Source of the DNA: Vicinamibacterales bacterium
GTDB lineage: Bacteria; Acidobacteriota; Vicinamibacteria; Vicinamibacterales; UBA8438
Assembly: GCA_965207265.1 (NCBI GenBank)
Contig: OZ242279.1
Coordinates: forward strand, 4,763,359 to 4,827,358
Reading direction: 5' to 3'
DNA: 64,000 nucleotides
The translations under genes and the position numbers were made by a program. Every line of letters begins with the position of its first letter. The stretch's first letter is position 1. Positions 10,670 to 37,104 of this stretch are shown here, one piece after another. The notes beneath the pieces were generated by a model. The model was not told where the DNA came from and ran no database searches. It worked only from the letters and a program-made list of their open reading frames with translations.

Positions 10670-11662
10670 ATGCCGGCGGGCCGTGACGCCGTCTCGCCCA
10701 TCCATCGGCCTCGGGAGTTCGCACGGGCACTCGGCGCGATGGTGGCCGAGCAGGTCGGCCCGGAGGGTCGCACGGTGCTGCTGCGTAGCGCCGTCGACCG
10801 TCACGCGTTCCGCACGGCGCACCGGAGCCAGACGGTCTATCACGGGCCGGTCGTCTACGCCGAGGATCCGGACGGGCGGCTGGAGAGCGCGTCGTCGGTC
10901 CTCGATCTGGCGTTGCTGCGCGTCTTCCTGAAGCCGGCGACGCACCGCGGCCAGCGCGAGTACCGGTTCGCCGTATGGGCGGACGGGGAGCCGGACCGCG
11001 ACCGGGTGGACCTGGAGGTGTCGCCCGCACTGCTCGACGCGATGCAGAGGCCGCCGCGGGAGCCCGAGCGCGGCGTTGTCGTGCCGGCCGGCGTCGACGA
11101 GCCCTCGGCCGTCGAGGAGGTGGACCATCCCGGCTCGTCAGGGGTTCGGGTGGTCGTCGAGGCGCCGCTGGCCATCCGCCATCCGATGATCGCGCCGCCG
11201 CGTTACGGCGCCGACGGCCTGCCGGCCGACCTGCGCGAGACGGCCGCTGTCCATGCCGCGGTCGAGGCCCTGCGGGTGGCTGTTGACCAGGTGGAGGCCC
11301 TGCGGGTGGCCGTTGACCAGGTGGACGGTGAACTGGGCCGGGACGCTGCGGCGGGGGCTTGGTACGCGGAGTCGGTCGTGCGGTTCTTCTGTTCGACCTA
11401 CGGCGGCCCCGTCGTCGGCGTGCGTGTGAACGAGGACAGCTTCATCGTGATCAGGGCCGATATGTGCCGCGACGAGCCGTGCGAGGTGACGATCGCGGTC
11501 GGGCCGGGCGGCACGTGCGCGTGCAAGGTGAGCAGCGGCGACGGCCATCGTGCGTCGGCGGCGCCAGACGTTCGCGCGTTCGAGCAGGTCCTGGCGAGGC
11601 GGATGGCTGAAGCGGGGGTGCACGCCAGGGTGCACGCCCGTCCCGGCCACGACCGGGGTTGA
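10670..11662 (+). CDS. hypothetical protein
   Basis: 330-aa ORF with high GC3. The opposing 341-aa ORF is Arg-rich shadow. The frame stays open upstream to a TGA at 10589, so it may be the 3' part of a larger disrupted gene starting near 10142. Confidence 0.5.
   Translation: MPAGRDAVSPIHRPREFARALGAMVAEQVGPEGRTVLLRSAVDRHAFRTAHRSQTVYHGPVVYAEDPDGRLESASSVLDLALLRVFLKPATHRGQREYRFAVWADGEPDRDRVDLEVSPALLDAMQRPPREPERGVVVPAGVDEPSAVEEVDHPGSSGVRVVVEAPLAIRHPMIAPPRYGADGLPADLRETAAVHAAVEALRVAVDQVEALRVAVDQVDGELGRDAAAGAWYAESVVRFFCSTYGGPVVGVRVNEDSFIVIRADMCRDEPCEVTIAVGPGGTCACKVSSGDGHRASAAPDVRAFEQVLARRMAEAGVHARVHARPGHDRG
11261..11325 (+). repeat. in-frame 30-bp tandem duplication (2.2 copies) inside the CDS
   Basis: GT(C/G)GAGGCCCTGCGGGTGGC(T/C)GTTGACCAG twice, then GTGGA. 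Encodes VEALRVAVDQ VEALRVAVDQ V. Confidence 0.85.
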
Positions 11663-11748
11663 CGAGCGCCCGCCGACGCTCCGACCCGGGCTGGCCGGGG
11701 CACCCGAGCCGGCAGCGGCGGCGAACTGATCGGACTACGACGCGTGCA

Positions 11749-12258
11749 TCAACGCCCCGCCGCTTGGCTGTTCGACGAGAGGCGATGGAAGGCCGACTTT
11801 GTGACTCGTATTCGGTCCTCAACGGTCTGCTCGGTTCGGTAGCGGGAACCCGCGATGCTCTCGTATTCGATGATGACGACACAGCCAGGAGATAGCGCGT
11901 TGGTGGAGTGCGCGGGTTCGAACGCCCCAGCCGGGGCAAGCTCCGGCAACTCGTACCAAGCAACCTGCGTGTCTCCTGTGGCCCGAACACTATAGCGACA
12001 GTTTACGGCCGGCGCCGGGCCAATGTTGGCGAAGGTCAGCTTGTCGCCAAGAGAAGCCGTAGCGCCTTCAAGCACTGCCATTTCCGATGGATCTGGCAGC
12101 TGATTCAGCACGACACACGGTCGTGGTAGCTGCTCCACGGCGGTGTAGGCAAGAGTCGCCGTGTCGTCTGCGTACGCCCGCAAGACATTGAAGTGCCGAT
12201 AAAGCACGACTAGAGTCAGGATACCCATCGCCAAGTTCAGAATCTCGTACGCATTCAT
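11749..12258 (-). CDS. hypothetical protein with N-terminal transmembrane helix, downstream of hsdM
   Basis: 169-aa ORF, lower GC. N-terminus MNAYEILNLAMGILTLVVLY. 98-nt gap after the hsdM stop, same strand. Confidence 0.5.
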   Translation of the reverse strand: MNAYEILNLAMGILTLVVLYRHFNVLRAYADDTATLAYTAVEQLPRPCVVLNQLPDPSEMAVLEGATASLGDKLTFANIGPAPAVNCRYSVRATGDTQVAWYELPELAPAGAFEPAHSTNALSPGCVVIIEYESIAGSRYRTEQTVEDRIRVTKSAFHRLSSNSQAAGR

Positions 12259-12356
12259 GTCGTGTCATTCCGGTGGGGCAGACTTTTCTCCACTTGACCG
12301 ATGGAAACGCGAAGGCTCCGCGTCTCGTGGCGGCGTCGAATCCTGCGCCGGGTACG

Positions 12357-13823
12357 TCAACGGATTGAGGCCTGCAGGTCCCGAATCAGCGCCAATGCTC
12401 TCGTCAGGTCGTCGGCCACTGCTTCCGAAATCCGTTCAAGGCGCGCCAGCCGCGGATCGCGCGGTTCACCGGAATCGTTGTACCACGCAAGGTCTAGCTG
12501 ACAGTCTCCCGTTGCGAGAACCTCCTTGACGCTGAACAGCCGGAACCGCGTATTCTCCTGCTCCTCTTCCGCAAAGCTCACGCGATAGCGCGTCACGAAA
12601 TCGCTAAGGTCCCGACGCCGCAGCGGCTTGGTCTTCAGAGACACACGCACATCGGTTCTCAGGTCGTACACCCCAAACGTCCCGTTCGCAGCGCGCTGCT
12701 GGTGCGCTTGATCGAAGAAGATGACGTTGGCCTTTACGCCCTGAGCATAAAAGATGCCCGGTGGCAGCCGCAGAACTGCACGCAATCGGCACCTTTCAAG
12801 CAAGCGCCGCCGGACCGCAGCAGCCGCGCCGGATTCAAACAGCACGTTGTCAGGCACAACCACGGCAGCACGCCCTCCGGGTTTAAGCAATGAGACGACA
12901 TGCTGGATGAAGTTCAATTGCTTGTTCGCGGTCTCAATCCAAAAATCCGGCCGGTCGATGGCTAGAAGGTTGAGTCCCGCGTCGCCACGCGAGTCCCGAC
13001 CGTAGGTAACACTACCCTTTGTGCCGAAAGGTGGGTTCGTCAGCACAATGTCAAACTTCGTCAGCGGAGCTTCCGCCAAACTGTCTTCGCAGCGCACCGG
13101 AAACTCATCCTGGGCATCGCCGCCAACACCGTGCAGAAGAAGATTCATGGCGGCTAGTCTAGCAACCTCCTCCACCAGTTCCACGCCGAGCATGGACCGG
13201 GTAGCGAGCGCGGCCTCTTCCTCGGTCGTCAAGTCCACGTTGTTGCGACGGATATGGTCGTGAGCGGCTAGAAGAAACCCGGCCGTCCCGCAAGCAGGAT
13301 CGCATATCGTCTCGCCGAGCCGCGGTTCAATGCACTCGACGATGGCTTCAATTAACGGACGCGGCGTGAAGTACTGCCCAGCACCGCTCTTCGTGTCCTG
13401 TGCGTTCTTCTCGAGTAGCCCTTCGTAGGCGTCGCCCTTCACGTCCGCAGCGACGCCGCGCCACTCGGTCTGCCCGATCAGCCCGGTCACCAGCAGGTGC
13501 AGCTTCGCTGGGTCACGGATCTTGTTCCTGGCGTTCCGGAAGATCACGCCCAACATTCCGGCCGTTCCGCCAAGCGTCGCCAAGATCCGGGCGTACTGCG
13601 CATGCATGGGCCCGGGATCGAGATGAACGAGCGACGGCCATCCGCACTCGGCGGGAACCGGACCGTCGTCGCCCTCGGCGGACATCTTCAAAAACAGCAG
13701 GTAGGTCAGTTGTTCGACATAATCCGGATACGACAGCCCGTCGTCGCGAAGGACGTTGCAATACTGCCAGAGTTTCCGAACGAGCGTCGCCGAAGCGTCG
13801 GCCCCGTTCTTCGTTCCAGTCAT
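12357..13823 (-). CDS. hsdM: type I restriction-modification system, DNA methyltransferase subunit M
   Basis: N-terminal HsdM-type LVRKLWQYCNVLRDDGLSYPDYVEQLTYLLFLKM. AdoMet motif ICDPACGTAGFLLAA. Catalytic NPPFG. Start 13823 preferred (ATGA overlap with the upstream stop); the ORF is open to 13853. Confidence 0.92.
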   Translation of the reverse strand: MTGTKNGADASATLVRKLWQYCNVLRDDGLSYPDYVEQLTYLLFLKMSAEGDDGPVPAECGWPSLVHLDPGPMHAQYARILATLGGTAGMLGVIFRNARNKIRDPAKLHLLVTGLIGQTEWRGVAADVKGDAYEGLLEKNAQDTKSGAGQYFTPRPLIEAIVECIEPRLGETICDPACGTAGFLLAAHDHIRRNNVDLTTEEEAALATRSMLGVELVEEVARLAAMNLLLHGVGGDAQDEFPVRCEDSLAEAPLTKFDIVLTNPPFGTKGSVTYGRDSRGDAGLNLLAIDRPDFWIETANKQLNFIQHVVSLLKPGGRAAVVVPDNVLFESGAAAAVRRRLLERCRLRAVLRLPPGIFYAQGVKANVIFFDQAHQQRAANGTFGVYDLRTDVRVSLKTKPLRRRDLSDFVTRYRVSFAEEEQENTRFRLFSVKEVLATGDCQLDLAWYNDSGEPRDPRLARLERISEAVADDLTRALALIRDLQASIR

Positions 13824-14665
13824 GACACCCTCAGCACGATGTCCCGAATCCACCAGCGATCCCGGAACATTTCCACGTAGGCGCGCGCCGCCCTGGAGTA
13901 CTCCTGGTGCGGTTCCGTCCGCTTCGCGAGGTCCTTGCAGACATCCAGGAACGCTTGAGTCACCGCATGCATCCCGCCGAAATCCCCCGGCGCAAGATCC
14001 TCGCCGCGGTAAATGTCCCGCTCAATCTCGTTGTAGAGCATCACCCTATCGTCACGAAACCTCGGCCAATTGAGATGAAGATGTAGTCGGCTCGCCTCAA
14101 GCTTCGCCTCCGCAATGGGTTCGCCCTTACGCTCGGGCACCAGTTCCACCTCGCCCGAGTCGCCGAATGTCAACATCGCCACATCGGCTGCATTCGTCGG
14201 ATCGACGATCGCGGGGCTCTCCAAGGCCAGGTCGTACTCCGGTCCGCGTGCGCGCCTCTCCGGATTCAGTAGCGGAAAGTTGTCGCTCTTACCGCCGGTT
14301 TCGCCGCGCTCTCTGTCTCGACGCGGTCTGTTGGCATATTGACAACTCAACCTCAGGTTCTTCCAGTCAAACGCGAGCCAATAGTAGCCCGGATGGGTCG
14401 GATCTTCGGCAACGCGCGACTTCGGTCGATAGTGGTCGATATCGTTGCCCGCGCCAGAACTCCTGCATTCCACATACCAACACTTGTGGTCAGAATGCCT
14501 CTCGAAGGCGTCTCGCACCGCGGTCCATCGGTCCCTATACCGCTCAAAAAGCGCCCTACGTCTTTCTGAATTCGTCTCCGCGAGGACCTCGTGCTTTGCC
14601 TCGTCGAGGGCCTGGATCTCACGCCGTATGTTTGGACGAATTGACTCAAGATCGATCAACCGCAT
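13820..14665 (-). CDS. HNH-family nuclease-like protein (TIGR02646 / Septu PtuB-like)
   Basis: 281 aa. KCWYVECRSSGAGNDIDHYRPKS ... YWLAFDWKNLRLSCQYANRP matches the C.YCE...DH.RPK...W.NL...C..CN pattern with altered cysteines. Its ATG directly follows the ATPase stop codon. Confidence 0.65.
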   Translation of the reverse strand: MRLIDLESIRPNIRREIQALDEAKHEVLAETNSERRRALFERYRDRWTAVRDAFERHSDHKCWYVECRSSGAGNDIDHYRPKSRVAEDPTHPGYYWLAFDWKNLRLSCQYANRPRRDRERGETGGKSDNFPLLNPERRARGPEYDLALESPAIVDPTNAADVAMLTFGDSGEVELVPERKGEPIAEAKLEASRLHLHLNWPRFRDDRVMLYNEIERDIYRGEDLAPGDFGGMHAVTQAFLDVCKDLAKRTEPHQEYSRAARAYVEMFRDRWWIRDIVLRVS

Positions 14666-16273
14666 CTACCTGGACACCATTTCGTTGCGTAGCCGTTCGA
14701 CGATCTGCCTGGCGAGTCGCACTCGGTCGCGCTGTTGCTCCGGCGTAAGCTGAATGTGCTTGCGCCACAGCGGATCTTCCTCTCTGGTCCAGGCTTCAAG
14801 AAAGAGCTTGTAGAGCGGATCTCGAATTGTCCGAGAGAAGCCCACCCTGTCGAGTTCCTTGTGCAGACCTTCCAGCTCAACCTCCTCTGCATCGTTTCGG
14901 TCGTCTTTCTGCATCAGGACGCGCCGCCGGTCCAGGCGTTCCTGGGTGTCCGCATCCAAGGTAGTGCGGAGACGGAACAGGTCGCTTGTCAGTATGGCGG
15001 CTACTCCCATTCCACGTGGATCCTGTTCGGGCACTTCGATGACCGCTTGGCCCTTCTCTCCCCGTCGCAGGACGCGAACCTGCTCCCTGGTCAGTCCGGC
15101 AAACACGAGCGGATCGTGCGTGGACATGACGATGTGGCAGGTCTCGCGCTGTCGGATGAAGCGATGAAGGAAGGACAGGTATTGAGTGCTCCAGGCCGGA
15201 TTGAGATGCGTATCGGGCTCGTCAAGAAGGAACAGTGCCTCCTCGGTCGCCGTAAATTTCAACAGGCCGAGCACGAGCAGCAATTGCTGCTCCCCCTCGC
15301 TGAGGTCTCGGTACGTCATCTCTCCGCCGCCAGCCTTCGGCGCCATACGCACGCGCGTTCGGACTTCGGCGAGCAATCTGGAGAGGTGCATACTCTCCAG
15401 CGCGGTAAAGAACGCGTACTGGTTGCCGTACCGCCCATAAACCCGAGATAGCCTCGCAGCGTCGGGCAAGAACAGGTAGAGGTTCTCCAGCGCCCGGTTG
15501 CTGGCGAGGTCGAACGACATGCGCCTGTCCATCCGAAGCGGCGGCATCGCCTCGTCGTACAGGCGGTCGAGAAATTCTTGGACCTCTCCCACCGCCCCCC
15601 AGAAACGGCGGTCACCGCCGCTCCGGCTCCAGTCGGGTTTGTTCAGTGCGAAAAGGACGCTGTCGAGCCCGTCGATCTGCAGAAAGTCGCGCAGAAACGC
15701 GCGGTCGCCCTCAGCGTCTTCCGGCTCCATAAAAAAGGCGATCAGCGCGAACTGTCCGTGTAGGGTCTGTGCGTAGAACACGCGGCGCAGGGCGCTCGCG
15801 TCGCCGGCGTCAACGGATCGTGCCGACGGCGCCTTGATGATCGCGCCGTAGTAGCGCTCGCGGTGCCTTTCGAAAATCGACGCGAGGCGGTCGCCGGGTC
15901 CCGAGTAGTAGCCAAAGACGAAGGTGGGCCGATACACAGGACGGCCGTCCTTGTCGACGGTCATGAATCTCCGGCGAGACAGCTTCTCGTAAGGGCCGCC
16001 ACGAGTGAGTTTGGCGCGAAATTTCGGGTACTGGTTCTCCGTGGCCACCACAGCCACATCGTGGTTTCTACATCGGTACTTTAGTTCGTACGAAAACGGA
16101 GCCTCCTCGTCGAGGTCGAGGTTCCGGAAAATCAGCGCCAGGGCTTCGAGCAGATTCGACTTGCCAGATCCATTCTCTCCCACGAGAACCGTGTACGGCG
16201 ACTCACGATCGAAGAGAACCCGGATGTCCCGGAGGTTCTTGAACGCCTCGACCCAGAGCTCGTCAATTCGCAT
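14666..16273 (-). CDS. ABC/SMC-type AAA ATPase (AAA_15/AAA_21-like; Septu PtuA-like)
   Basis: 535 aa. Walker A GENGSGKSN, signature-like LSEGEQQLL, Walker B LFLLDEPDTHL, H-loop STHD. The start overlaps the hsdS stop by 11 nt. Confidence 0.85.
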   Translation of the reverse strand: MRIDELWVEAFKNLRDIRVLFDRESPYTVLVGENGSGKSNLLEALALIFRNLDLDEEAPFSYELKYRCRNHDVAVVATENQYPKFRAKLTRGGPYEKLSRRRFMTVDKDGRPVYRPTFVFGYYSGPGDRLASIFERHRERYYGAIIKAPSARSVDAGDASALRRVFYAQTLHGQFALIAFFMEPEDAEGDRAFLRDFLQIDGLDSVLFALNKPDWSRSGGDRRFWGAVGEVQEFLDRLYDEAMPPLRMDRRMSFDLASNRALENLYLFLPDAARLSRVYGRYGNQYAFFTALESMHLSRLLAEVRTRVRMAPKAGGGEMTYRDLSEGEQQLLLVLGLLKFTATEEALFLLDEPDTHLNPAWSTQYLSFLHRFIRQRETCHIVMSTHDPLVFAGLTREQVRVLRRGEKGQAVIEVPEQDPRGMGVAAILTSDLFRLRTTLDADTQERLDRRRVLMQKDDRNDAEEVELEGLHKELDRVGFSRTIRDPLYKLFLEAWTREEDPLWRKHIQLTPEQQRDRVRLARQIVERLRNEMVSR

Positions 16274-17963
16274 CGCCGATCTCTACAGTCGGGTTTTCGG
16301 GCTCGGCGCCTGCCAATCGCACGGACCGTCCGAGTTGGGACCGTAGCGCGAGGTAGAAGCGTTCCACGTGCTCCGTCTGATCCCGATCGAAGTTCGCCCG
16401 TGCATAAAGTACTGGTAGCGAAAGGGAGCCCCCTGACTCGTGAAGCACAGCGGCCAGATCGACAGCCCCTGCCCCCGAGCGCCCTTTGGATCGTCGCTTG
16501 GTTCTCACTTCAGTGGACCTCCCGGTATGGCGCGGCGGTCTCGGCGAGCTTGGCGGCGGCCCGAGGCGGGCCAACAGGACGTCTGCCGGCTCGTCGTCGG
16601 GGACTTGGGGGACGGTCTCCCCGGCGATCGCGGCAGCGAGGAGTTCGCGCTGCATGTCGGGCACCTTCGCGAGGGAGTCCCGCACGGCCCGCGTCTGACT
16701 CGCGGTTGCATCTAGGCGGCGTCGCGCCGCCGCAGCGATGCGCCTCTGCTCCTCGAAGGGTGGCACGGGGAACGGCAGGGCGCGAAACCGCCGGAGCCCG
16801 AGGTGTGCGATGTTTGTCGACCAGCGGGCGATCGACCGGAAAAGGCCAGAGTGGAGATAGCGGCGGAAAACCAATAGAGCGAATTCTGGCGCCAGGTCTT
16901 CTCCGGCTCTAAATCGAATGAGCGTATTCTGAAAGCACATTCTGGGGAGCTCGCCCCTGTAGATCGCCGCCCGACCTACCAGTTCCGGACTTTGCCCTTC
17001 GTTAAGGAGAATGTCACCGGAGTGAAGCTCGTATCGGGCCGCTTCGTCGCGCTCGAAGTTCATCGTGAGCACGTCGGTCGTGTCGATGCTGTCCTCCAAT
17101 ACATTCGCTACTCTGAGGTAGGGTTTCATGTTCGGTCCGTGATGATGCGCGGGCGAACGTTGGCGGCCCAGCTGTGTCATGCCAACCTCGGCTACCGTCC
17201 TCCATGCCCAATGTCGCGGAACCGGATCGAACCGAAGCGGCTGGCCGCGTCGCGCCCCCGAACGCTCGTCTATCCCTTCTGGCAGGTGTGTCTCGACACC
17301 ACCGACGCGGTGGCCGGGAAGCTCGCTCGTGGTCTCGACCAGCGTCCCGGACGTCGCCGCAGCGGCGATTTCTCTCACCTGTTCGGCGAGATTGCTCAGG
17401 GCGGATTCAAGCCGTTCGGTCGCCTCACGCATCTGTTCCAGCTTCTCATTGGCCGCGTCGGCGATACGCTTCTGTTCGGGCAGAGGGGCGACCGGGAACG
17501 GCAACGCTGCGAGTCTCGACGAGCCAAGGTGCTGGATGCCCACGCCGCGCGCCGTTCGCGCGAACACGCCGGACGCGGCGTAATGTCGAAACACGAGCAG
17601 CGCGTAATCGGGAGTTACGGTGTGTGGTCTGAAGCGGATGAGGTGATTCTGAAAGCAGCAACCCTCGATGCCGGCCCGCCAGATTGCGGCCCGCCCGACC
17701 TGTCCGGGAGTCCCGGAGGCTTCCGTCAGCAATACGTCGCCGGGCTGCAAGTTGAACATGGCCCGTTCTGCGGGCGTGAAGTCCATTTCGCGAAGGTCGG
17801 TCAAATCGAGGCCGGTCAGGGTGACATTCGCCGACCGCAGGTATTTGGTAGCGTAGCGGCCCGTCTGGCGATCGGGCGAGCGTTGAAGTCCGGTACGTAC
17901 CGACCCCACGCGGTCCACCCGGGTCACCGTCCATGAATCGGGCACTCTCAGCGTCTCGGACAT
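16263..17963 (-). CDS. hsdS: type I restriction-modification system, specificity subunit S, with C-terminal extension
   Basis: Two target-recognition domains, each followed by the conserved LPFPV(A/P)P..EQ.RIA helix, plus an extra ~150-aa C-terminal tail. Start at ATG 17963 (MSETLRVPDSW). The ORF extension to 18104 runs into IS-end-like sequence. Confidence 0.88.
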   Translation of the reverse strand: MSETLRVPDSWTVTRVDRVGSVRTGLQRSPDRQTGRYATKYLRSANVTLTGLDLTDLREMDFTPAERAMFNLQPGDVLLTEASGTPGQVGRAAIWRAGIEGCCFQNHLIRFRPHTVTPDYALLVFRHYAASGVFARTARGVGIQHLGSSRLAALPFPVAPLPEQKRIADAANEKLEQMREATERLESALSNLAEQVREIAAAATSGTLVETTSELPGHRVGGVETHLPEGIDERSGARRGQPLRFDPVPRHWAWRTVAEVGMTQLGRQRSPAHHHGPNMKPYLRVANVLEDSIDTTDVLTMNFERDEAARYELHSGDILLNEGQSPELVGRAAIYRGELPRMCFQNTLIRFRAGEDLAPEFALLVFRRYLHSGLFRSIARWSTNIAHLGLRRFRALPFPVPPFEEQRRIAAAARRRLDATASQTRAVRDSLAKVPDMQRELLAAAIAGETVPQVPDDEPADVLLARLGPPPSSPRPPRHTGRSTEVRTKRRSKGRSGAGAVDLAAVLHESGGSLSLPVLYARANFDRDQTEHVERFYLALRSQLGRSVRLAGAEPENPTVEIGDAN

Positions 17964-18037
17964 GGGGAAGTGGTTTGGGTCGAGCCGGGGCAATTCTCGA
18001 CAAGCTCCGCTCTTTGGGGCAGATGCGACGATGCCGT

Positions 18038-18650
18038 CGTGTGGTACAAGTGCCCTTTCAGCAACAACTTGCGCCACCACGAAGCCCCGGGCGACGCCCC
18101 ACACAGTATCACAACACTGTCGGGCTCGCGAACCGACGACCGCTCCTGGTCGCCGCTTCGACCGCGGCGGATGAGCTTTGAGGGCGGCGCTGATCCATCA
18201 GCAACACGCTGGCGCTCCTGACGCTGGCGCGGTCTCCTCTCGCCGTGGCCGCCCAGGTTGCGGGCCCGCCCCGCGGGCAGCGAGCCGACAGCGTTGCCGA
18301 AATGGGGCCTGCGCGTCTGCCCGCGAACGATCGGCCATCGCGCCGCGTGGGGTGATGCCGCCGCGCTCTGTCCCGCGGTCGCGCGGCGCCAGCGGATCCG
18401 TTTGGGACCAGAGCCGGATGAGGCAGATCGTCGAGCCTCTTGCAGAACCCTGCGATGGGGTGGTTTTCTTGCCCGACAGGGCAGGATGCTGGTGGGTCGG
18501 CCCGCCAAGGGTAGCACAATCGGGGCGGCCGACAGCGGCCGACCGCGACTGCGGGACCACCCCACCCGGCGGGTCAGGAAGGCGTTCTTTCGGTTATGGG
18601 AGTAACAACGGCCTGGGAGAGCGCGCGGACCGCTTTGGCACCTCGCGCGG
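18038..18650 (+). mobile_element. possible degraded IS1380-family left end and 5' transposase remnant
   Basis: 18038..18081 shares CGTGTGGTACAAGTGC ... TTGCGCCACCACG with the region just upstream of the IS1380 transposase start at 45703..45746. Downstream frames give weak matches (TVSQ..., EGGADPS...) to the N-terminus TVPQ...SDGGAILL. Confidence 0.3.
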
Positions 18651-18693
18651 TGTTTTCCTCGCTCATCGCGTTGCTGCTTGATATGGTTCCAGC

Positions 18694-19833
18694 ATGAGCC
18701 GTCTACGAGAATCCTTCGCCCCCTATTGGCAGTCGATTCAGGAGGCGCTGTTCCCCCACCTGGAGCAGACGCTGGGGCCACTGACCGCCAGGCAACAACA
18801 GTTGGTGCAGACCTTGGAGGTCGTCCGTATCGAGCAGTGGATTCCCCCGCACTTCCGGGCGCCGGGGCGTCCGCCGAGCGACCGCGCCGCGCTGGCGCGG
18901 GCATTCGTGGCCAAGGCGGTCTACGACATGCCGACCACGCGGATACTGCTGGACCGCTTGGACACCGATGTGGCGCTACGGCGCATCTGCGGCTGGGAGC
19001 GGCGGAGCCAGGTGCCGAGCGAGTCGGTCTTCTCGCGCGCCTTCGCCGAATTCGCCGATTCGCAGTTGCCCCAACGCGTGCATGAAGCGCTGGTCCGCGA
19101 GACCCACGGCGACCGGTTGGTGGGCCATCTCTCCCGCGACTCGACGGCCATCGAGGCGCGGGAGAAACCTGCCGCCAAGGAGAAGGCGCCGGCGCCCCCC
19201 AAGCGCAAGCGCGGGCGGCCGAAGAAGGGAGAAGAACGACCGAAGCGGCGCACACGGCTCGAACGGCAGTCCACCATGACCCTGCCGGAGATGCTCGACG
19301 ACCTGCCGACCGACTGCGATGTCGGTACGAAGAAGAACAGCAAGGGATACCGCGAGAGCTGGACCGGCTACAAGCTACACATCGACGTGGCCGACGGCCA
19401 AATCCCCATAACTTGCCTGCTGACGTCCGCCTCGGTGCATGACAGCCAGGTCGCCATTCCCCTGGCGACGATGTCGGCTGAGCGGACGACCAACTTCTAT
19501 GACCTGATGGATGCGGCCTACGATGCCGAAGCGGTCCGCGAACACAGCCGCTCACTCGGCCACGTCCCGTTGATTGACATCAACCCCCGCGGCGACAAGG
19601 CGCTGGCCGAGGAGTTGAAGGCCGAAGCCCGGCGCCTGCAGTGCATCGGCCTTCAACTCCCCGAACAGATCCGGTACAACGAACGCACGGCGGGTGAGCG
19701 CGTCAATGGCCGACTCAAGGACGAGTTCGGTGGCCGCCATATACGAGTCCGTGGCGCCTCCAAGGTGATGTGCCATTGCATGTTCGCCGTGCTCGCACTC
19801 ACCGCCGACCAGCTCCTGCGCCTTGTGACATAA
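18694..19833 (+). CDS. IS5/IS4-superfamily DDE transposase (DUF772-type N-terminus)
   Basis: 379 aa. N-terminal GRPPSDRAALARAFVAKAVYDMPTTRILLDRLDTDVALRRICGWE. C-terminal YNERTAGERVNGRLKDEFGGRHIRVRG. DDE_Tnp_1-like. Confidence 0.85.
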   Translation: MSRLRESFAPYWQSIQEALFPHLEQTLGPLTARQQQLVQTLEVVRIEQWIPPHFRAPGRPPSDRAALARAFVAKAVYDMPTTRILLDRLDTDVALRRICGWERRSQVPSESVFSRAFAEFADSQLPQRVHEALVRETHGDRLVGHLSRDSTAIEAREKPAAKEKAPAPPKRKRGRPKKGEERPKRRTRLERQSTMTLPEMLDDLPTDCDVGTKKNSKGYRESWTGYKLHIDVADGQIPITCLLTSASVHDSQVAIPLATMSAERTTNFYDLMDAAYDAEAVREHSRSLGHVPLIDINPRGDKALAEELKAEARRLQCIGLQLPEQIRYNERTAGERVNGRLKDEFGGRHIRVRGASKVMCHCMFAVLALTADQLLRLVT

Positions 19834-20423
19834 CCAACGCGTCGCCGGACCCCTCGCCCATCCCACCGCATGGCCTGACCGGCGTCAGGCCTCTACCGAT
19901 GTCCTCAGCTCGGTCGAGTGTCGAAGCCGCCGGTTTCAGCCTCTCGCGTGACGCCGGTCCTGTAGAACCAGACACAGGGTCGGCAACCCAGCGACAACAG
20001 CGTTCTCCAGAGCGTCAGGGCCCGCATCGAGCCGCAATCCCGCGGAAATTCTGCAAGTGGCTCCGTCGACAACGTGATAAACGACCTCGCCGACACTTGG
20101 CGCGAGACGCGGCGCCAGCCACGGCGAGAACGCGGGCACCGGCCAACGGCCGCGCCGTCGCGCCCCTAGCGCCCTAGCGACGGCGGCTCTGGGGGCGCTG
20201 AAGTACGAAGCTGTGCATCTTCACGAGCTGGGTATCTTCACGAGCTGGCCGACGGGTTTTCGGCCGAGCGGGTGATCGCGGACGACCTCGATGTTGGGGG
20301 CTGGGAAGTTAACGGAATGGGCCGTTATCCGACCCGGCCCAAGGGCCGGGTCAACCCGCCGAACCGCTCCAGCACCGGCACGGCTCGCGTCTCGCTGCGT
20401 AGCGCTACGGGTCAGCGCTGAGT

Positions 20424-20706
20424 TCACCGAAGTCGATCGAGTTGCTCCGGCGCCGCCGAAATCGTCGTGGTCCGCTGCCCGACGGTACCTCATGAGGGCT
20501 TCCACGGGGTCCTGGCGCAGGCCGTAGCCGTTCTCGTATGTCTGTCGGATGCTGGCCGGCGCGCGGGCATGTGCCTGTTCGTTCCACGGTGGTACCAGCG
20601 GACGGTCTGTTGCATCGTCCTGCACCACGCGGCGGCCTGTCGCGTACATCGAACCGAGGCTGTCCTGCCCGAGAGCAGGTCCCTGTTCGGCAGACGCCCG
20701 AACTAC
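20424..20706 (-). pseudogene. 3'-terminal Sel1-repeat fragment of a caspase-Sel1 paralog (frameshifted)
   Basis: Minus-strand frames give ASAEQGPALGQDSLGSMYATGRRVVQDD ... YENGYGLRQDPVEALMRYRRAAD and, in another frame, PEQLDRLR followed by a stop. The paralog-type 3' flank motif follows at 20308..20335. Confidence 0.5.
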
Positions 20707-20961
20707 CGGACGGCTTCGACGCCGCCTTGGGACACGCCGCCGCAACCCACGAGGTGGAAGACGCCAGGACCGTTTGCGGGAGCGTCTTCTTGGTCGACCA
20801 GACGGTCCGCGGGCACGTCGCGGAGACTTCGTCGTCTTGCGGCACGCCGGTCTCGTTGGCGCACGTGCCTCTGACGTTGCCCGGTACATCGGCCGAAACC
20901 CTGCCCAGGCGTTCTGCCTCCGCGGGCTGACGCCTCCGTCCGGCGGAAACCGGATCCGCCG

Positions 20962-21290
20962 ATGAAGGTCGACCAGCCGCACAGCCGCCGTCGTGACGAC
21001 GCGCTTCCGTCGGTCGAGGCGATGAGCCGGTCTCTGCGGTTGTGCGAGCGGTACGGTTTGCACGATCCGGCGGTCGCCCGGTTCCGCCGTCGGCCGGTAG
21101 AACGCGACAGCGGCTGGGGGGCCACGTCGAGACCCACCTCGCTCGGCTGCAGCGCGACCGCCTGCGCTCTTCGGTCCGGCGTGCCGGTCCGCGGCGACTG
21201 GCCGGAGTGGAACGTCGCCGCGAGGCATGCGGCGGTCGAGCACCTCGAACGAGCGGGCGCCGGCGTCACCGCGTCCCGCCGCTCGCGCTC
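20962..21290 (+). CDS. diverged member of the small MDDALPTV-family ORF (hypothetical), apparently truncated by the AbiE locus
   Basis: MKVDQPHSRRRDDALPSVEAMSRSLRLCERYGLH...GDWPEWNVAARHAAVEHLE aligns at protein level with 33179..33412 (MDDALPTVGVTMRFLALCQLHGSH...DDWTRWNGAQMRAAVEYLE) although the DNA has diverged. The rest of ORF 20962..22200 is antisense to 21298..22092. Confidence 0.35.
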
Positions 21291-21297
21291 GGCAACA

Positions 21298-22092
21298 TCA
21301 CAGGCCAGTTCCGAGACGATACCAGCCGAAAAGCTCGAAGATCTCAAGTCGGTGTTCGTCTTCCACGATGAGCTTGCCCGTCTCTCGAGCCACGACGCCG
21401 ATGGCGGTCGCCTCCGGACTATCGAATCGGTTGAGGACACCGTTCACGGTTTCGCTGACGGACTCGTCCAGGAAAGGCTTGGCCTCGTCACCGACCACGT
21501 AAGCGCCGGTGTACTCGTAGGGCACACCTTCGCCGTCGTGATCGACGCCGTACCGCCGATCATCGTCTTCGAGGTAGTGTTCCAGGCAATGGAGAACACT
21601 GGCGAGATCCTTGGGTTCCTCTCGGTCGCTGAAGGCCACGAGCTTCAGGAGGACATAGAGCGGCAGCGGGGCCACTGGCAGCGTCAGCTCACCTTGAATT
21701 GGAATGACGACAGCATTCGGCACGACGTAGCCGAAGCCGGCCATGTTCAAGATGAGGCCTTCTTCGAGTTCCAACCCATCTCGCGCGATCGCTTCGTTGA
21801 ACGGCAGGATGTCCACCCACCCCCCGTCGCGGTGGCTCAGGCGATGCGGTTGGCGTGTGCGCGTGAACCCGTAGTCGGCAAGCCGGTCCTTCAGCAGATC
21901 GAAATCCTCGAGTCCCTCGACGACGACGGCCACATCCACATCGTTGGTCTTGCGCAGCGGCTGTACATCCAGGAGAAGTTCGGGAACAAGTGCTCCCACG
22001 ATTCCAAACGGGATCTCCAACTCCCGCAGTCCGCGCTCAAGGTCGACGACGACCCGCATCAAGGCGGGAGTCTCAACGCGCGGCATCGTCAA
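21298..22092 (-). CDS. nucleotidyltransferase, AbiEii-like toxin
   Basis: 264 aa. Minimal NTase motif FGIVGALV...RKTNDVDVAVVV. Overlaps the upstream antitoxin-like gene by 20 nt. Confidence 0.7.
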   Translation of the reverse strand: MTMPRVETPALMRVVVDLERGLRELEIPFGIVGALVPELLLDVQPLRKTNDVDVAVVVEGLEDFDLLKDRLADYGFTRTRQPHRLSHRDGGWVDILPFNEAIARDGLELEEGLILNMAGFGYVVPNAVVIPIQGELTLPVAPLPLYVLLKLVAFSDREEPKDLASVLHCLEHYLEDDDRRYGVDHDGEGVPYEYTGAYVVGDEAKPFLDESVSETVNGVLNRFDSPEATAIGVVARETGKLIVEDEHRLEIFELFGWYRLGTGL

Positions 22093-23149
22093 GATCCTTG
22101 GGCAAGAGCAGTTCGGCTGCCTCCAGCGCCTGGCCGGTGCCTCGGTACCGCAACTCGGCGTAGGTCAGCAGGCCCGGAGCGACGGGGAAGTCGTCGTTGA
22201 TCTCACCGGCTATCGCCAGGGGGCCCGGCGGCTCGATGACCAGCAGGTTTCCACCTCGTGCAGCAGGCTGGGCGACGAGCGCCTTCTGGGCCTCGCGGTC
22301 CGCGAGCGCGCGGACGGGCGCGTAAATCTCCGTCTCGTCCGCGCGAAAGAAGGGCGTGCGTCGCTCGGCCGCGTCGGCACCCGTCAGCGCCCAGGGCTGT
22401 CCACGCTCGGCGAGCACGTTCTGCAGCCGCGGCCAGATCTCCTGTTTCTCCTTGGCCTTCACTTGGAACCGGCGCTCCTTCAGCCTGGGACGTAGCCCTT
22501 CGATGTAGGCCTGTGCCCACAACGCAACCAGCGCCTGCGGGTCTTCCAGTCTCCGGCCGTCCTTCCCCTTGAGCAGGAGCCCGCGTGCAGCCAGGTCGTG
22601 CATGCATCCGGCAACGGTGCCAAGGGCCACGTCCGCCTGGTCCGCCAGAGTACGGTACGGCGCATTGGTGAGGCCTGGACGGATGAGGACGGCCATGACC
22701 GTCTTGATCCAGCCCTTCTGCGGTCGGCCGGGAGCGGGAGGGAGATCTTTCTGTGGCCGGCGGCCTTCCACGTGAACAAACAGGCCTGGAGCCTGCAAAT
22801 GAGCGTTGCCGGCGAGATCGACGTAGTCGATCCCCGCACGCTCGAGCACGGCTGCCTGTTGTCGCCGGACGTGTGGCGCAACAAGGAGGACCCGGTCCTC
22901 CGCTCGGCCGGGGGGCAGGGTCGCTCGGCGTCGGTGCAGCTGCTCGACTACGATCCCAACATCCTGGTGGCGGAGGTGTCGCTTCTCCTCGACGAGGTAC
23001 CGAATCACACCCCTGGCGGCCTTCCAAGTGACGACGCCGTCGAATAGGGCCAGAGCTCTTCCGGTCGCGCGAATCTCGGCGTACGGCATCCACTTCCGCA
23101 GAGCAGGCCCGTACATGTCAAGGTAGGGCGCGGCTGCCACCCGGGTCAT
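22073..23149 (-). CDS. AbiEi-like antitoxin / transcriptional regulator
   Basis: C-terminal PVAPGLLTYAELRYRGTGQALEAAELLL is typical of AbiEi-family proteins as I recall them. Start at ATG 23149 preferred, because the ORF extension to 23185 is AT-rich operator sequence. Confidence 0.65.
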   Translation of the reverse strand: MTRVAAAPYLDMYGPALRKWMPYAEIRATGRALALFDGVVTWKAARGVIRYLVEEKRHLRHQDVGIVVEQLHRRRATLPPGRAEDRVLLVAPHVRRQQAAVLERAGIDYVDLAGNAHLQAPGLFVHVEGRRPQKDLPPAPGRPQKGWIKTVMAVLIRPGLTNAPYRTLADQADVALGTVAGCMHDLAARGLLLKGKDGRRLEDPQALVALWAQAYIEGLRPRLKERRFQVKAKEKQEIWPRLQNVLAERGQPWALTGADAAERRTPFFRADETEIYAPVRALADREAQKALVAQPAARGGNLLVIEPPGPLAIAGEINDDFPVAPGLLTYAELRYRGTGQALEAAELLLPKDLDDAAR

Positions 23150-23166
23150 GTTCAGAAGTCTAGCAC

Positions 23167-23200
23167 GTTCATTAGTAATGAACACAGATTATTTATGAAC
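23167..23200. promoter_or_regulatory. AT-rich palindromic operator/promoter candidate upstream of the AbiE-like operon
   Basis: GTTCATTA-G-TAATGAAC perfect palindrome at 23167..23183, plus a third ATGAAC half-site at 23195..23200, in the only AT-rich stretch of this neighbourhood. Confidence 0.4.
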
Positions 23201-24652: not shown

Positions 24653-25126
24653 ATGCGGCGAATTGCGGCGGGAATCGCACTCATGATCTTCGCCGGGGCG
24701 CCGGCGTTTGCGCAGACTTCCGTTTCCGTTGCGGTGCGGCATGCGATGCGCGCCGTCGGGACGCACGATGTCCTGCCCGCGACGGCTCAAGGACTGGTGA
24801 TCGGCACGTCGACGCAGGTGATAGGGCGCTTGGGAGCGTGGGGATCGTTCACGACCTGGCCGGAGCCGATCGGCCGAACACTCGCCTTCGGCGGGCGGTT
24901 CAACCTTGCGCGCGACGGCTGGCAGCTGCGCCCGGCTGTCCTGCTCGGCACGTGGCGCAAGCCGACACGCGGCGCACCGTGGCAGCTGATCTTCGGCGGG
25001 GGAGTCGGGTTCCGTATCCGAGGACAATGGAGCGGTAGTGTTGCACTCGGCGTAATCACGATTCGTTCGACCGGCTTGGCCTATGCCGTGCCACAGGCCG
25101 GCGTCGCGTACACACTACTGCCGTAA
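24653..25126 (+). CDS. small secreted, possibly beta-barrel, protein (hypothetical)
   Basis: Start ATG 24653 after GAGAGGAA. Signal peptide MRRIAAGIALMIFAGAPAFAQ. Alternating Gly/aromatic-rich sequence ending YTLLP. Confidence 0.5.
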   Translation: MRRIAAGIALMIFAGAPAFAQTSVSVAVRHAMRAVGTHDVLPATAQGLVIGTSTQVIGRLGAWGSFTTWPEPIGRTLAFGGRFNLARDGWQLRPAVLLGTWRKPTRGAPWQLIFGGGVGFRIRGQWSGSVALGVITIRSTGLAYAVPQAGVAYTLLP

Positions 25127-25135
25127 GGGGTCTAG

Positions 25136-25252
25136 CCGGAGACGACGCTGCAAACGGGACTGGTGCCACAAGATGGCCAACGTGCTCGACAAGCTGCCGA
25201 AGCGCCTTCGGCCGCGGGCGAAGCGGGCGTTGCGCGAGATCATGGTATGCGT
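25136..25252 (+). pseudogene. IS256 (Mutator)-family transposase fragment
   Basis: RDWCHKMANVLDKLPKRLRPRAKRALREIM matches the conserved (Q)RCW.HK..NVL.K.PK...AK..L..I motif of IS256-family transposases. No flanking parts of the gene are present. Confidence 0.45.
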
Positions 25253-25254
25253 CG

Positions 25255-26236
25255 ACGCTCCCTCGCCCTGCTCGTCGACGAACTTCATCCTGCTCAGAAA
25301 CGGCGCGGCGAACTGGCTCAGCCCGGCGTGACGCTCGGCCGTCTGCTCGAAGCGGGCCTTCCGGTCGCCTCGCGTCCAACTCGCCAGGTCGGACTGGTCC
25401 TCGCGCAACTTCTCCTCCGGCACGATGGACAGCAGTCGGGCGCGCAACTCGTCGTCGCCGACAACGGCAACTACCAGCGGGTCCTGTTCCACAGCGTCCG
25501 GACCGCGTCTGCCGACCGGGTGCGCGAGATGGCGGCCCCGCGTCGCCACCTCGGGCTGTTGTGCTTCCTGCACCAGGCGTGGCGCGACACGCTCGACCAG
25601 GCCGTCGACATGTACGGCAAGCTCCTCGACCGCAATCGGAAGCGGGTCGACGAACGCCTCGACGACATGCTCAAGGCGCAACGCCACGCCGTCGACCGGA
25701 TCGTTCAACGCTACCGCCGGCTCGGCGCCGTGCTGCTCGATCCCGACGGTGACCCAGCTCACGTCGATGTCCAGCAGGGCGCGGGCCTTGTGCCGGGCCG
25801 CTCCCACCGCACGGCGCAGCACCGAGTCGGCCGGCGCGAGAACGTGTTCGTCGCGGGGCCAGCCCCGCGCCCGCGCCAGCAGGGACGCCGTGCGGTCGAG
25901 CCGCGGCGCTTCGTCTTCGAGGAACCGCGCCAGCCGTTCGCCGGCGGCGGTGTCGAACGTGCGCAGACGCAGGTACTCACCGATGCGCTGCTGATGCTCG
26001 GAGACCGTCTGCTGCCGGCGCTCGTAGGCGTGGATCGTCTCGGCGTCGGCCCCCAGCTGCAGGGCCGCGAACCTCAGGATCTCCCCGTCGATTTCCAGGG
26101 GCGCTTGTTGGGGGAACCTCCCGAGCACACGCACGAAGGCGACCTGGTACGCGAAGCCCAACCGATTGTGGGGGCCCCGCCGCAGGGCGATCTCTCGTCG
26201 GTCGGCCTCGAGCACGCCCAGCAGATTGCCGGCCAC
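25255..26236 (-). mobile_element. Tn3-family transposase gene remnant (about the first 400 codons) with an internal inverted segment
   Basis: Minus strand 26236..25771: DUF4158-type RRGPHNRLGFAYQVAFVRVLGRFP...HAYERRQQTVSEHQQRIGEYL. Plus strand about 25460..25755: APRRHLGLLCFLHQAWRDTLDQAVDMYGKLLD (cf. Tn21 TnpA PQRRYATLVAL...DEIIDLHDRILGKL). Minus strand about 25430..25255: ERHAGLSQFAAPFLSRMKF (cf. ESYATLRRYAPEFLAVLKL). Confidence 0.6.
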
Positions 26237-36788: not shown

Positions 36789-37104
36789 GGCGTCCCGATG
36801 AAATCCACGACGGCCGGCGGAACGAACTCGCCCGGCGTCAGCAGGCGGCCAGGGTAGCGGAGCATGCAAAACGGCCGTAGTCCCAAGAAGACTGTCCACG
36901 AAATGACGATTCTTCGCGTTCGGCTGTTCGGTTTTCGATTCACCGACGTCTGGAGAGAATAGATGGGGGTTTGCCAAGCGCGCCCATGGGCCGAAGCGAG
37001 GCCGGAGTCGTCTTCCGGGCACGGCGCCTGGGCGTCTTGGAGCACGACACCGGGCTTGTGAACCGACGCGAGAATCCGCCGTGAAGGTGAAGGAGTTGCA
37101 CGGG
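36789..37104. repeat. 316-bp upstream block duplicated at 54066..54385 (Tn3 DUF4158 fragment on minus strand plus caspase-gene leader)
   Basis: By-eye alignment is nearly identical (a few substitutions, one 1-nt indel). The minus strand of 36789..36880 encodes MLRYPGRLLTPGEFVPPAVVDFIG (Tn3 TnpA N-terminal motif). The leader core ACGAAATGACGATTCT..GTTCGG..GTTCGGTTTTCGATTCA also occurs at 36516..36570. Confidence 0.85.

Follow-up and report, generated by a model that had tools for sequence, protein, structure and literature searches.

We describe here a four-gene cassette, roughly 5.6 kb in size, that fills positions 12357-17963 of a 64,000-nucleotide stretch of a Vicinamibacterales genome (Acidobacteriota; assembly GCA_965207265.1, contig OZ242279.1; the whole stretch is referred to below as the window). 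Read along the minus strand, the cassette consists of hsdS, a PtuA-like ATPase gene, a PtuB-like HNH nuclease gene and hsdM (S, A, B and M in what follows), i.e., the specificity and methyltransferase genes of a type I restriction-modification (RM) system enclosing a Septu-like pair (PtuAB). This order, given in a preliminary description of the same DNA, was confirmed from the sequence. The four genes very probably work as one coupled system, and we regard them as a self-contained defence cassette in which PtuAB is probably an effector controlled by the methylase.

The strongest case for a coupled system comes from the recurrence of the cassette in distant bacteria. A scan led by the ATPase, in which each species was represented by a single genome, gave 80 loci with ATPases 37-85% identical to that of the window; three plasmid loci were added, and after removal of duplicates the collection comprised 84 distinct loci. 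These come from at least 12 phyla, among them Acidobacteriota, Actinomycetota, Alpha-, Beta- and Gammaproteobacteria, Verrucomicrobiota, Planctomycetota, Chloroflexota, Cyanobacteria, Bacteroidota, Bipolaricaulota, the Candidate Phyla Radiation (CPR) and others, and very close ATPase homologues, 65-89% identical, are found in unrelated phyla. In all 84 loci hsdS lies directly upstream of the ATPase gene and a ptuB-like gene directly downstream of it, while hsdM is placed either after the HNH gene or before hsdS. The order S-A-B-M was found in 49 loci, as well as in copies cut by contig ends, and M-S-A-B in 8 to 11. The question raised earlier, of whether the pair recurs between hsdS and hsdM in other genomes, can be answered affirmatively for at least 49 of the 84 loci. 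Where tblastn missed S, an S-sized open reading frame (ORF) with the characteristic tail (see below) was still in place, and no member of the ATPase subfamily without an hsdS was found among the 84 loci.

Not only the order of the genes but also the way they are joined is conserved. In the window, the stretch in which the ATPase start codon (ATG at 16273) overlaps the end of hsdS reads ...GATGCGAATTGA, and this 11-nucleotide (nt) overlap, the TAGATG junction between the ATPase and HNH genes and the ATGA at 13823 were all as previously noted. Identical proteins with the same gene calls were present on two metagenome contigs (loci L001 and L002), both with the hsdS of 566 amino acids (aa), and in L002 the call for the 488-aa hsdM begins 4 nt ahead of the HNH stop. 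Most related loci share an overlap of 11, 14 or 4 nt between the S stop and the A start; in Bradyrhizobium, for example, the cassette reads S(580)-A(536)-B(285)-M(493), with the same 11-nt S/A overlap and 4-nt overlaps in the gene calls. The genes have also diverged together, as the identity of A to its counterpart in the window was correlated with that of B, M and S (Spearman 0.94, 0.93 and 0.89, respectively; n=61). The ratio of nonsynonymous to synonymous substitution rates (dN/dS) between the window and three relatives lacking the restriction subunit HsdR was 0.16 for S, 0.06-0.10 for A, 0.11 for B and 0.09-0.12 for M (the overall range cited for the four genes in HsdR-less cassettes being 0.06-0.17). 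Clustering of flanking ORFs revealed no conserved fifth gene except HsdR (9 loci) and a small gene in seven alphaproteobacterial loci. The suggestion of a casual defence-within-defence insertion, one of two readings offered in the preliminary description, is not supported by these findings: the synteny is obligate over 84 loci and many phyla, the coupling is conserved and the HsdS tail is specific to the cassette. On plasmids of Pantoea and Pseudoalteromonas that carry the cassette (see below), annotation by the Prokaryotic Genome Annotation Pipeline (PGAP) names the four proteins only "restriction endonuclease subunit S", "AAA family ATPase", "hypothetical protein" and "class I SAM-dependent DNA methyltransferase".

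Individual loci carry additional genes within or beside the cassette. In seven alphaproteobacterial loci (L004, 7304-8114, and six others) a small ORF, of the TacA1 type where annotated, lies upstream of hsdS; in Bradyrhizobium a TacA1 antitoxin and a GNAT acetyltransferase (TacT-like) form a pair directly upstream of hsdS, and the small ORF of the seven loci occupies the same position. Among the M-S-A-B variants, some have one or more extra genes between hsdM and hsdS, namely a DUF4357 gene in L092 (2806-3735) and two small ORFs in L063 (5347-6503). In L094 a T5orf172/MUG113 gene follows right after ptuB. In L003, on a 4-Mb contig, ptuB is displaced by an insertion sequence (IS) with a DDE_3 transposase (11635-12770), and the cassette has as neighbours a gene for a SIR2/nSTAND NTPase and another type I system, separate and complete, with its own HsdR (15327-21608).

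The second line of evidence concerns the HsdS tail. Its length had been put at about 150 aa; it is actually about 105 aa long and consists of a basic, proline-rich linker of about 40 aa followed by a domain of about 65 aa, the linker following the last conserved region, which ends in ...VPQ..DEPA..LL. The domain was present in all cassette S proteins, close and distant, with or without HsdR. An AlphaFold 2 model of the tail (predicted local distance difference test, pLDDT, 67) had the topology H-b-H-H-b-b, on the strength of which residues 501-566 are predicted to form a winged helix. Foldseek with this model gave nothing significant, returning from the PDB generic winged-helix proteins only (best E 0.1). 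The kleisin RAD21-C domain, which binds SMC ATPase heads, was among these Foldseek matches and is taken as a lead only; by analogy, the tail could possibly dock on the ATPase head as kleisin winged-helix domains do on SMC heads.

When a profile of the tail was run against 1.84 billion cluster representatives, no more than 158 matches were obtained, so that the tail is rare, nearly all of them at the extreme C-terminus of proteins of 490-595 aa, or in fragments. One match, P0373 (872 aa, SH3_3), was discarded as a false positive, being a non-S protein in a cell-wall locus. Of four S proteins chosen by the tail alone, three were followed downstream by an AAA_15/AAA_21 ATPase and a protein of about 260 aa without Pfam match, and the contig of the fourth breaks off 185 aa into the gene that follows. 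Tail and PtuAB thus go together whichever of the two starts the search, and this association is the strongest sign of a physical coupling; we propose that the tail is a docking module for PtuAB. Two further searches added little: a word-indexed homologue search with a 25-sequence S-tail alignment returned seven short fragments only, which are not informative on distribution, and tblastn of the 135-aa S C-terminus against plasmids returned only the self-match.

The remainder of the methylase bears the marks of an enzyme kept under selection. The hsdM product was matched by Pfam N6_Mtase (E 7.5e-64) and HsdM_N and by PADLOC MTase_I (E 2.4e-161), with motif IV, NPPF, at 13026-13037. Across 76 HsdM relatives, most of them from HsdR-less loci, the NPPFG core was kept in at least 95%, and GQYFTPR, DPxxGxxGF and VVPDNVLF were largely kept. 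HsdS was matched by Pfam Methylase_S in two stretches and by PADLOC Specificity_I (E 1e-96), and its two target-recognition halves are paralogous (44% identical, BLASTP E 1e-44). Half-size hsdS genes, encoding one recognition domain and the tail, were observed in Streptomyces thinghirensis (L026, 9106-9993) and in a Fimbriimonadaceae metagenome-assembled genome (L078, 8979-10001); they fit an internal duplication of the full-size S and imply a symmetric recognition site. In four alphaproteobacterial loci (L017, L019, L020 and L021), hsdS is split by an insert of about 830 bp (e.g., 8633-9460 in L017), with A, B and M intact.

We also examined to which families the ATPase and the HNH protein belong. 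Septu reportedly consists of an ATPase, PtuA, and an HNH protein, PtuB (Doron 2018). The ATPase of the window was matched by Pfam AAA_21 (1.1e-23), AAA_15 (1.9e-13) and SMC_N, and over its full length by the PADLOC PtuA model PDLC00293 (E 6.5e-176, residues 1-531). It contains a Walker A motif, GENGSGKS (16157-16180), the signature LSEGEQQ, a Walker B motif, LLDEPD (D351-E352 at 15218-15223), and an H-loop (H386), all four of which were invariant across 20 homologues. The HNH protein, likewise, was matched over its full length by the PADLOC PtuB model PDLC00330 (E 4e-62, residues 1-276), so that the Septu-like identity first proposed for the pair is supported. The pair nevertheless missed the curated NCBIfam cut-offs, the ATPase scoring 62 of 500 bits against the PtuA equivalog model, which is built on retron Ec78, and the HNH protein 24.5 of 150 bits against that for PtuB; the latter protein also scored 37 bits against TIGR02646, under the 52-bit cut-off. 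The ATPase has only remote similarity to the solved PtuA 8ee4 (E 7e-9), and is related to AriA, the PARIS sensor (PADLOC model, E 2e-24; PDB 8ux9). Its best NCBIfam match was TIGR04435, "restriction system-associated AAA family ATPase", with 118 bits. Membership in that family was rejected, as the cut-off is 300 bits, the match covers the C-terminal third only and seven distant relatives, whose best NCBIfam match it likewise was, scored 121-156 bits. Given the missed curated cut-offs, the remoteness of the solved PtuA and the lack of a PDB match for the HNH protein, the pair forms a branch of its own within the broad Septu family and is not closely related to the characterised enzymes.

For the HNH protein, neither the Pfam search nor the PDB sequence search gave a match. 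Its AlphaFold model was poor (pLDDT 62.8, core below 50; 30 homologues, at least 53% identity), and Foldseek with this model returned nothing, hence the fold assignment is based on profiles and motifs. The catalytic core reads D77-H78 ... N103 ... N112 (14330-14437). Across 76 relatives H78, R80-P81, N103, N112, K126, D155-P156 and R207 were invariant, D77 was kept in 75 and K82 was nearly invariant. The shifted or missing cysteines pointed out earlier are real: C62, C67 and C108 of the zinc finger are present, and positions 65 and 111 are occupied by V and A, as in the whole close clade. The canonical set, C62/C65/C108/C111, is complete only in some distant relatives, the window's clade having C62, C/S67 and C108; as judged from these alignments, the shift is a feature of the clade and not damage. 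The HNH protein also matched the N-terminal parts of long PADLOC "PtuA" models (PDLC00292, 00288 and 00291; 726-773 aa), which indicates that PtuB-PtuA fusion proteins exist elsewhere. Taken together with the methylase motifs, this conservation indicates that methylase and nuclease are both kept active by selection.

The cassette of the window is not accompanied by hsdR. tblastn with eight EcoEI-type HsdR proteins from related loci gave no match in the 64 kb, and Pfam found no helicase in the ten largest other ORFs. A Walker A motif occurs in two stop-to-stop segments of 250 aa or more: the PtuA gene itself and 61301-62374 (minus strand), which lacks a DExH/D motif and so is not helicase-like. 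The initial statement that the window contains no HsdR-like ORF was thus borne out by all three scans. Beyond the window, no HsdR was found within 10 kb in 70 of the 84 loci, and in 42 of these the sequence extends 8 kb or more to either side. The window's clade (ATPases with an identity of 57% or above) comprises 45 loci, 29 of them with flanks of that length on both sides, and none has a linked HsdR. Homologous loci therefore do not always retain hsdR. Large flanking ORFs of HsdR-less loci, considered as candidates for HsdR, were assigned by Pfam to unrelated proteins, among them PEP-utilising enzymes, TraG/VirB4, SbcC-like proteins, a TOTE helicase-primase and CysN/C. A Roseomonas plasmid with S-A-(B)-M carries hsdR nowhere in its 64 kb, and no hsdR was found near the cassettes of Pantoea pEuc2 and a Pseudoalteromonas plasmid (S-A-B-M and M-S-A-B). 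Nor does the IS upstream of hsdS in the window hide an hsdR, since related loci without that IS are also without hsdR.

A linked HsdR was detected by tblastn in the remaining 14 loci, all of which have an ATPase less than 46% identical to the window's. The HsdR of these distant relatives is of the EcoEI type (Pfam HSDR_N, ResIII, Helicase_C and EcoEI_R_C) and stands first, in the orders R-S-A-B-M or R-M-S-A-B; its stop overlaps or abuts the next start in 6 of 11 junctions examined, making a coupled five-gene operon there. On this distribution, HsdR is an optional component: most lineages can dispense with it, and in some distant relatives it would serve as a second effector. As 14 distant relatives keep both, PtuAB did not arise as a substitute for HsdR.

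These observations lead us to propose the following mechanism. HsdS and HsdM would form the usual M2S1 enzyme, recognize a bipartite site of two related half-sites and methylate the host DNA. The winged-helix domain of HsdS, on its flexible basic linker, would tether a complex of the ATPase PtuA with the HNH protein PtuB, which would stay latent while M2S1 meets only modified self DNA. On encountering unmodified sites in incoming DNA, M2S1 would trigger the ATPase cycle of PtuA and thereby license the PtuB nuclease, which may then cut DNA close to the site or, possibly, tRNA, the target known from characterised Septu. The docking of the tail on PtuA, the gating by methylation status and the nuclease substrate are the parts that we infer. 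Gating by methylation is favoured because HsdR-less cassettes keep the methylase motifs, so that some effector must make methylation worthwhile, and PtuAB is the only one present. Retron Ec78/Eco7 offers a precedent: there PtuAB is a module co-opted by another sensor, which sequesters it until infection, and it nicks plasmid DNA besides cutting tRNA-Tyr (PMC12819146). We thus lean, tentatively, toward an M2S1 core that controls PtuAB as an HsdR-independent effector gated by methylation status. It is also conceivable, and put forward with somewhat greater reserve, that the cassette represents a widespread, unnamed form of RM-like immunity in which M2S1 recruits PtuAB through the HsdS winged helix and gates it by methylation without HsdR; neither an S-PtuA-PtuB-M cassette nor the HsdS tail is described in the literature searched, in which the coverage of ABC ATPases is incomplete.

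Several points weigh against gating by methylation. The PtuAB of stand-alone Septu and of retron Eco7 act on tRNA-Tyr after infection, not on unmethylated DNA (PMC13096335 and PMC12819146). In the operons of the 14 distant relatives HsdR and PtuAB stand together, so that there PtuAB is no replacement, and a methylation-gated second nuclease beside HsdR would be redundant. The place of hsdM, last in the operon, is awkward for the safe establishment of a restriction-like system. The recognition domains of HsdS are 60-70% conserved in the close clade, the same as the remainder of the protein, and are thus non-diversifying, unlike those of classical restriction systems under frequency-dependent selection. 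The model of the tail is of moderate confidence only, and that of PtuB is poor. Finally, an hsdR may lie unlinked elsewhere in the chromosome, which is compatible with the flanks of about 10 kb that were searched. Staphylococcus aureus Sau1 is a precedent for an unlinked hsdR. The hybrid initially suggested, in which the ATPase/HNH pair replaces HsdR as effector, is plausible and agrees with most of the evidence, as 70 of the 84 loci, including all 45 of the clade, are without HsdR and the methylase motifs are still under selection. It stays a hypothesis in view of the 14 distant relatives that keep HsdR and PtuAB together, of the tRNA-Tyr cutting of characterised PtuAB, which fits a guard (discussed next) equally well, and of a possible unlinked hsdR.

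Such a guard, resembling PrrC or PARIS, would be held in check in the manner of a toxin by its antitoxin: M2S1, with HsdR where present, would mask PtuAB via the S tail, and a phage anti-restriction factor directed at the type I methylase core (a DNA mimic such as Ocr or ArdA, or a Stp-like peptide) would free PtuAB to cleave tRNA or DNA, resulting in abortive infection. In HsdR-less cassettes, M2S1 would then survive mainly as bait and mask. We take this to be the main rival, less probable than gating by methylation although in accord with much of the evidence. PtuAB lies inside the hsd operon, as prrC does between hsdS and hsdR of EcoprrI, and EcoprrI holds PrrC latent until T4 Stp acts (PMC12707154); AriA, to which the ATPase is kin at the E value given above (2e-24), senses Ocr and unleashes a tRNA nuclease (PMC12839542); and tRNA-Tyr is cut by the characterised PtuAB of both Septu and retron. 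A guard would also explain the five-gene operons that contain HsdR and the tight, toxin-antitoxin-like translational coupling of all genes, and non-diversifying recognition domains suit a bait. However, 70 of the 84 loci have no HsdR to guard, and in these loci purifying selection acts on the NPPFG core (kept in 95% or more of 76 sequences) and on the two recognition halves of S, for which a mere bait would have no need. Moreover, PARIS senses Ocr without a methylase partner, so that a 3.2-kb bait is not obviously required.

Alternatively, the two could be independent neighbours, an ordinary Septu having settled in an hsdS-hsdM locus and travelling with it but with a separate function, and the type I system being in decay or served by an unlinked hsdR. 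Defence genes embedded in type I loci are known, such as prrC, the rlo genes and the GmrSD-like genes in Vibrio VPI-2, PADLOC would label the pair a stand-alone Septu type I system, and an unlinked hsdR would be compatible with the flanks covered. Still, we judge such independence quite improbable: order, overlaps and co-divergence are shared by 84 loci from 12 or more phyla, the S tail occurs solely together with the ATPase/HNH pair, and the ATPase subfamily was not found without S among the loci examined. Strong purifying selection and intact motifs in all four genes argue against decay, and the pair stands between S and M, whose products must co-assemble, where a neutral insertion would not be so stable. 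A last explanation, that PtuAB is a helper that loads or activates M2S1 on DNA, with the HNH protein as a structural or nicking co-factor, could draw on the MANTIS methylase, which is activated in an ATPase-dependent way by MtsA and MtsB (bioRxiv 10.64898/2026.09.23.753747), and on the degenerate zinc-finger cysteines of the window's clade. Yet type I M2S1 enzymes are known to methylate unaided, the HNH residues D-H, N and N are kept by 75 or more of the 76 sequences, which indicates that nuclease activity is selected, and by profile the pair belongs to Septu effector families; we therefore hold a mere helper to be very improbable. Control of PtuAB by the methylase, gated by methylation status, accordingly stays the reading we prefer.

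Coordinates of the cassette, its junctions, the HsdS tail and the adjacent insertion sequence in the window
Feature	Positions	Strand	Details
hsdS	16263..17963	-	566 aa; ATG 17963, stop 16263-16265
PtuA-like ABC (OLD/SMC-type) ATPase	14666..16273	-	535 aa; ATG 16273
PtuB-like HNH nuclease	13820..14665	-	281 aa
hsdM, N6-adenine DNA methyltransferase	12357..13823	-	488 aa from ATG 13823
hsdS stop / ptuA start overlap, 11 nt	16263..16273	-	from sequence; translational coupling
ptuA TAG / ptuB ATG abutment (TAGATG)	14663-14668	-	from sequence
ptuB stop / hsdM start overlap (ATGA)	13820..13823	-	from sequence
HsdS linker, residues 461-500	16464..16583	-	poorly conserved, Pro/Arg/Lys-rich; from conservation profile and 40 relatives
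HsdS C-terminal domain, residues 501-566	16266..16463	-	conserved, L..VL...G.L...EL....G.....VE.FY..LR
Insertion sequence, ~1.63 kb, ~470 bp upstream of hsdS	18433..20063	+	context, outside the system

The surroundings of the cassette suggest how it may have been acquired. Its G+C content is 60-63%, compared with 66-72% in the surroundings, and together with the neighbouring IS this shift makes the region look horizontally acquired. The DNA upstream of hsdS, previously described as IS debris, instead holds an apparently intact IS, with a 379-aa transposase (18694-19833; PF05598, DUF772, and PF01609, DDE_Tnp_1) and 15-nt terminal inverted repeats (18433-18447 and 20049-20063) that are 93% complementary. 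This IS may supply or disrupt the promoter of the operon.

Other features of the window were also recorded. Three paralogous proteins, each with a caspase domain (Peptidase_C14, E about 1e-36) at the N-terminus and 5-10 Sel1 repeats, are encoded on the plus strand at 43-2121, 2315-3817 and 37081-38703; one of them has a weak match to PADLOC "caspase", and two of the three lie in low-GC patches. At 21298-23185 and 25115-26236, on the minus strand, lie genes for a 370-aa protein with a weak AbiEi_2 match and an overlapping 264-aa partner, adjoined by a fragment of a Tn3-type DUF4158 transposase; the two proteins resemble an AbiE-type pair, but an assignment to AbiE was rejected, there being no match to the PADLOC AbiE models. 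A PD-(D/E)XK nuclease (PDDEXK_4; PADLOC candidate PDC-S26, E 3e-39) is encoded in a low-GC patch at 48357-49673 on the plus strand, and another transposase of the DDE_Tnp_1 type at 58067-59881.

Few defence systems are as common as Septu, and the cassette pairs PtuAB with a well-understood DNA-reading machine. If M2S1 does gate PtuAB, the effectors driven by type I specificity modules are not limited to HsdR, and many "orphan" hsdMS pairs would need to be re-read; the report of defence finders, which currently present such a locus as Septu plus an incomplete type I system, would need to change as well. Should M2S1 serve as bait, the cassette would show the PrrC principle at work a second time, with an HNH protein and across a dozen phyla. 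The predicted contact between S and PtuA through the tail and the small size of the four-gene cassette make it directly testable by cloning.

How, then, does the cassette compare with known systems? Like Septu, it has an ABC/OLD-type ATPase gene followed immediately by one for a putatively TIGR02646-like HNH protein, with the Walker A/B motifs and the HNH core kept. It differs in that the pair is never solitary, hsdS adjoining it and hsdM being present in every one of the 84 loci, and in that two of the four zinc cysteines are lost in the window's clade. The family TIGR04435, whose name records a curated link to restriction loci, is a sister family of the cassette ATPase and not the same. With retron Ec78/Eco7 (Septu type II, retron type I-A) the cassette shares the co-option of a PtuAB module by a separate sensor. 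In the retron, however, PtuA gained extra elements to bind its partner (PMC12819146), whereas here it is the partner, HsdS, that bears the extra domain. Instead of a reverse transcriptase with msDNA, this partner is the core of a type I methylase, and the cassette has neither a reverse transcriptase nor an ncRNA. Membership in retron type I-A was rejected, since hsdS lies upstream of ptuA in every locus and no reverse transcriptase is among the called genes.

EcoprrI, with its PrrC, resembles the cassette in having an NTPase-regulated nuclease inside a type I hsd operon beside hsdS, as do RloC and the Campylobacter rlo genes, and the embedding of a nuclease gene in the hsd operon that defines the PrrC type is found here too, with the pair between hsdS and hsdM. 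PrrC, on the other hand, is a single polypeptide whose anticodon-nuclease domain is unrelated to HNH, EcoprrI always comes with HsdR, and a dedicated HsdS tail, which the cassette has, is not known from it. In PARIS, a related OLD-type ABC ATPase controls a separate nuclease, and what is sensed is an anti-restriction protein; its nuclease is Toprim/DUF4435 and not HNH, and it works without a methylase or S partner. MADS, BREX and MANTIS share with the cassette a methyltransferase that marks self (with an S-like subunit in MADS) and restriction by other ATPases and nucleases in place of HsdR. The cassette is not a MADS, as it scored 116 of 720 bits for MAD2, 41 of 420 for MAD3 and 51 of 400 for MAD5 and, with four genes only, lacks MAD6, MAD7 and MAD8, which are mandatory there (bioRxiv 10.1101/2023.03.30.534895). 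BrxC- and PglZ-like components are absent as well, and the methylase of the cassette is a bona fide type I M2S1; MANTIS/Gao_RL was set aside for its different architecture. Measured against type I RM, it has an HsdM with its motifs and an HsdS with two target-recognition domains, and in the window HsdR is absent. By its gene content, then, the cassette appears to be built from known kinds of components in a combination for which the literature searched has no description, one that fits neither stand-alone Septu nor a complete type I RM system.

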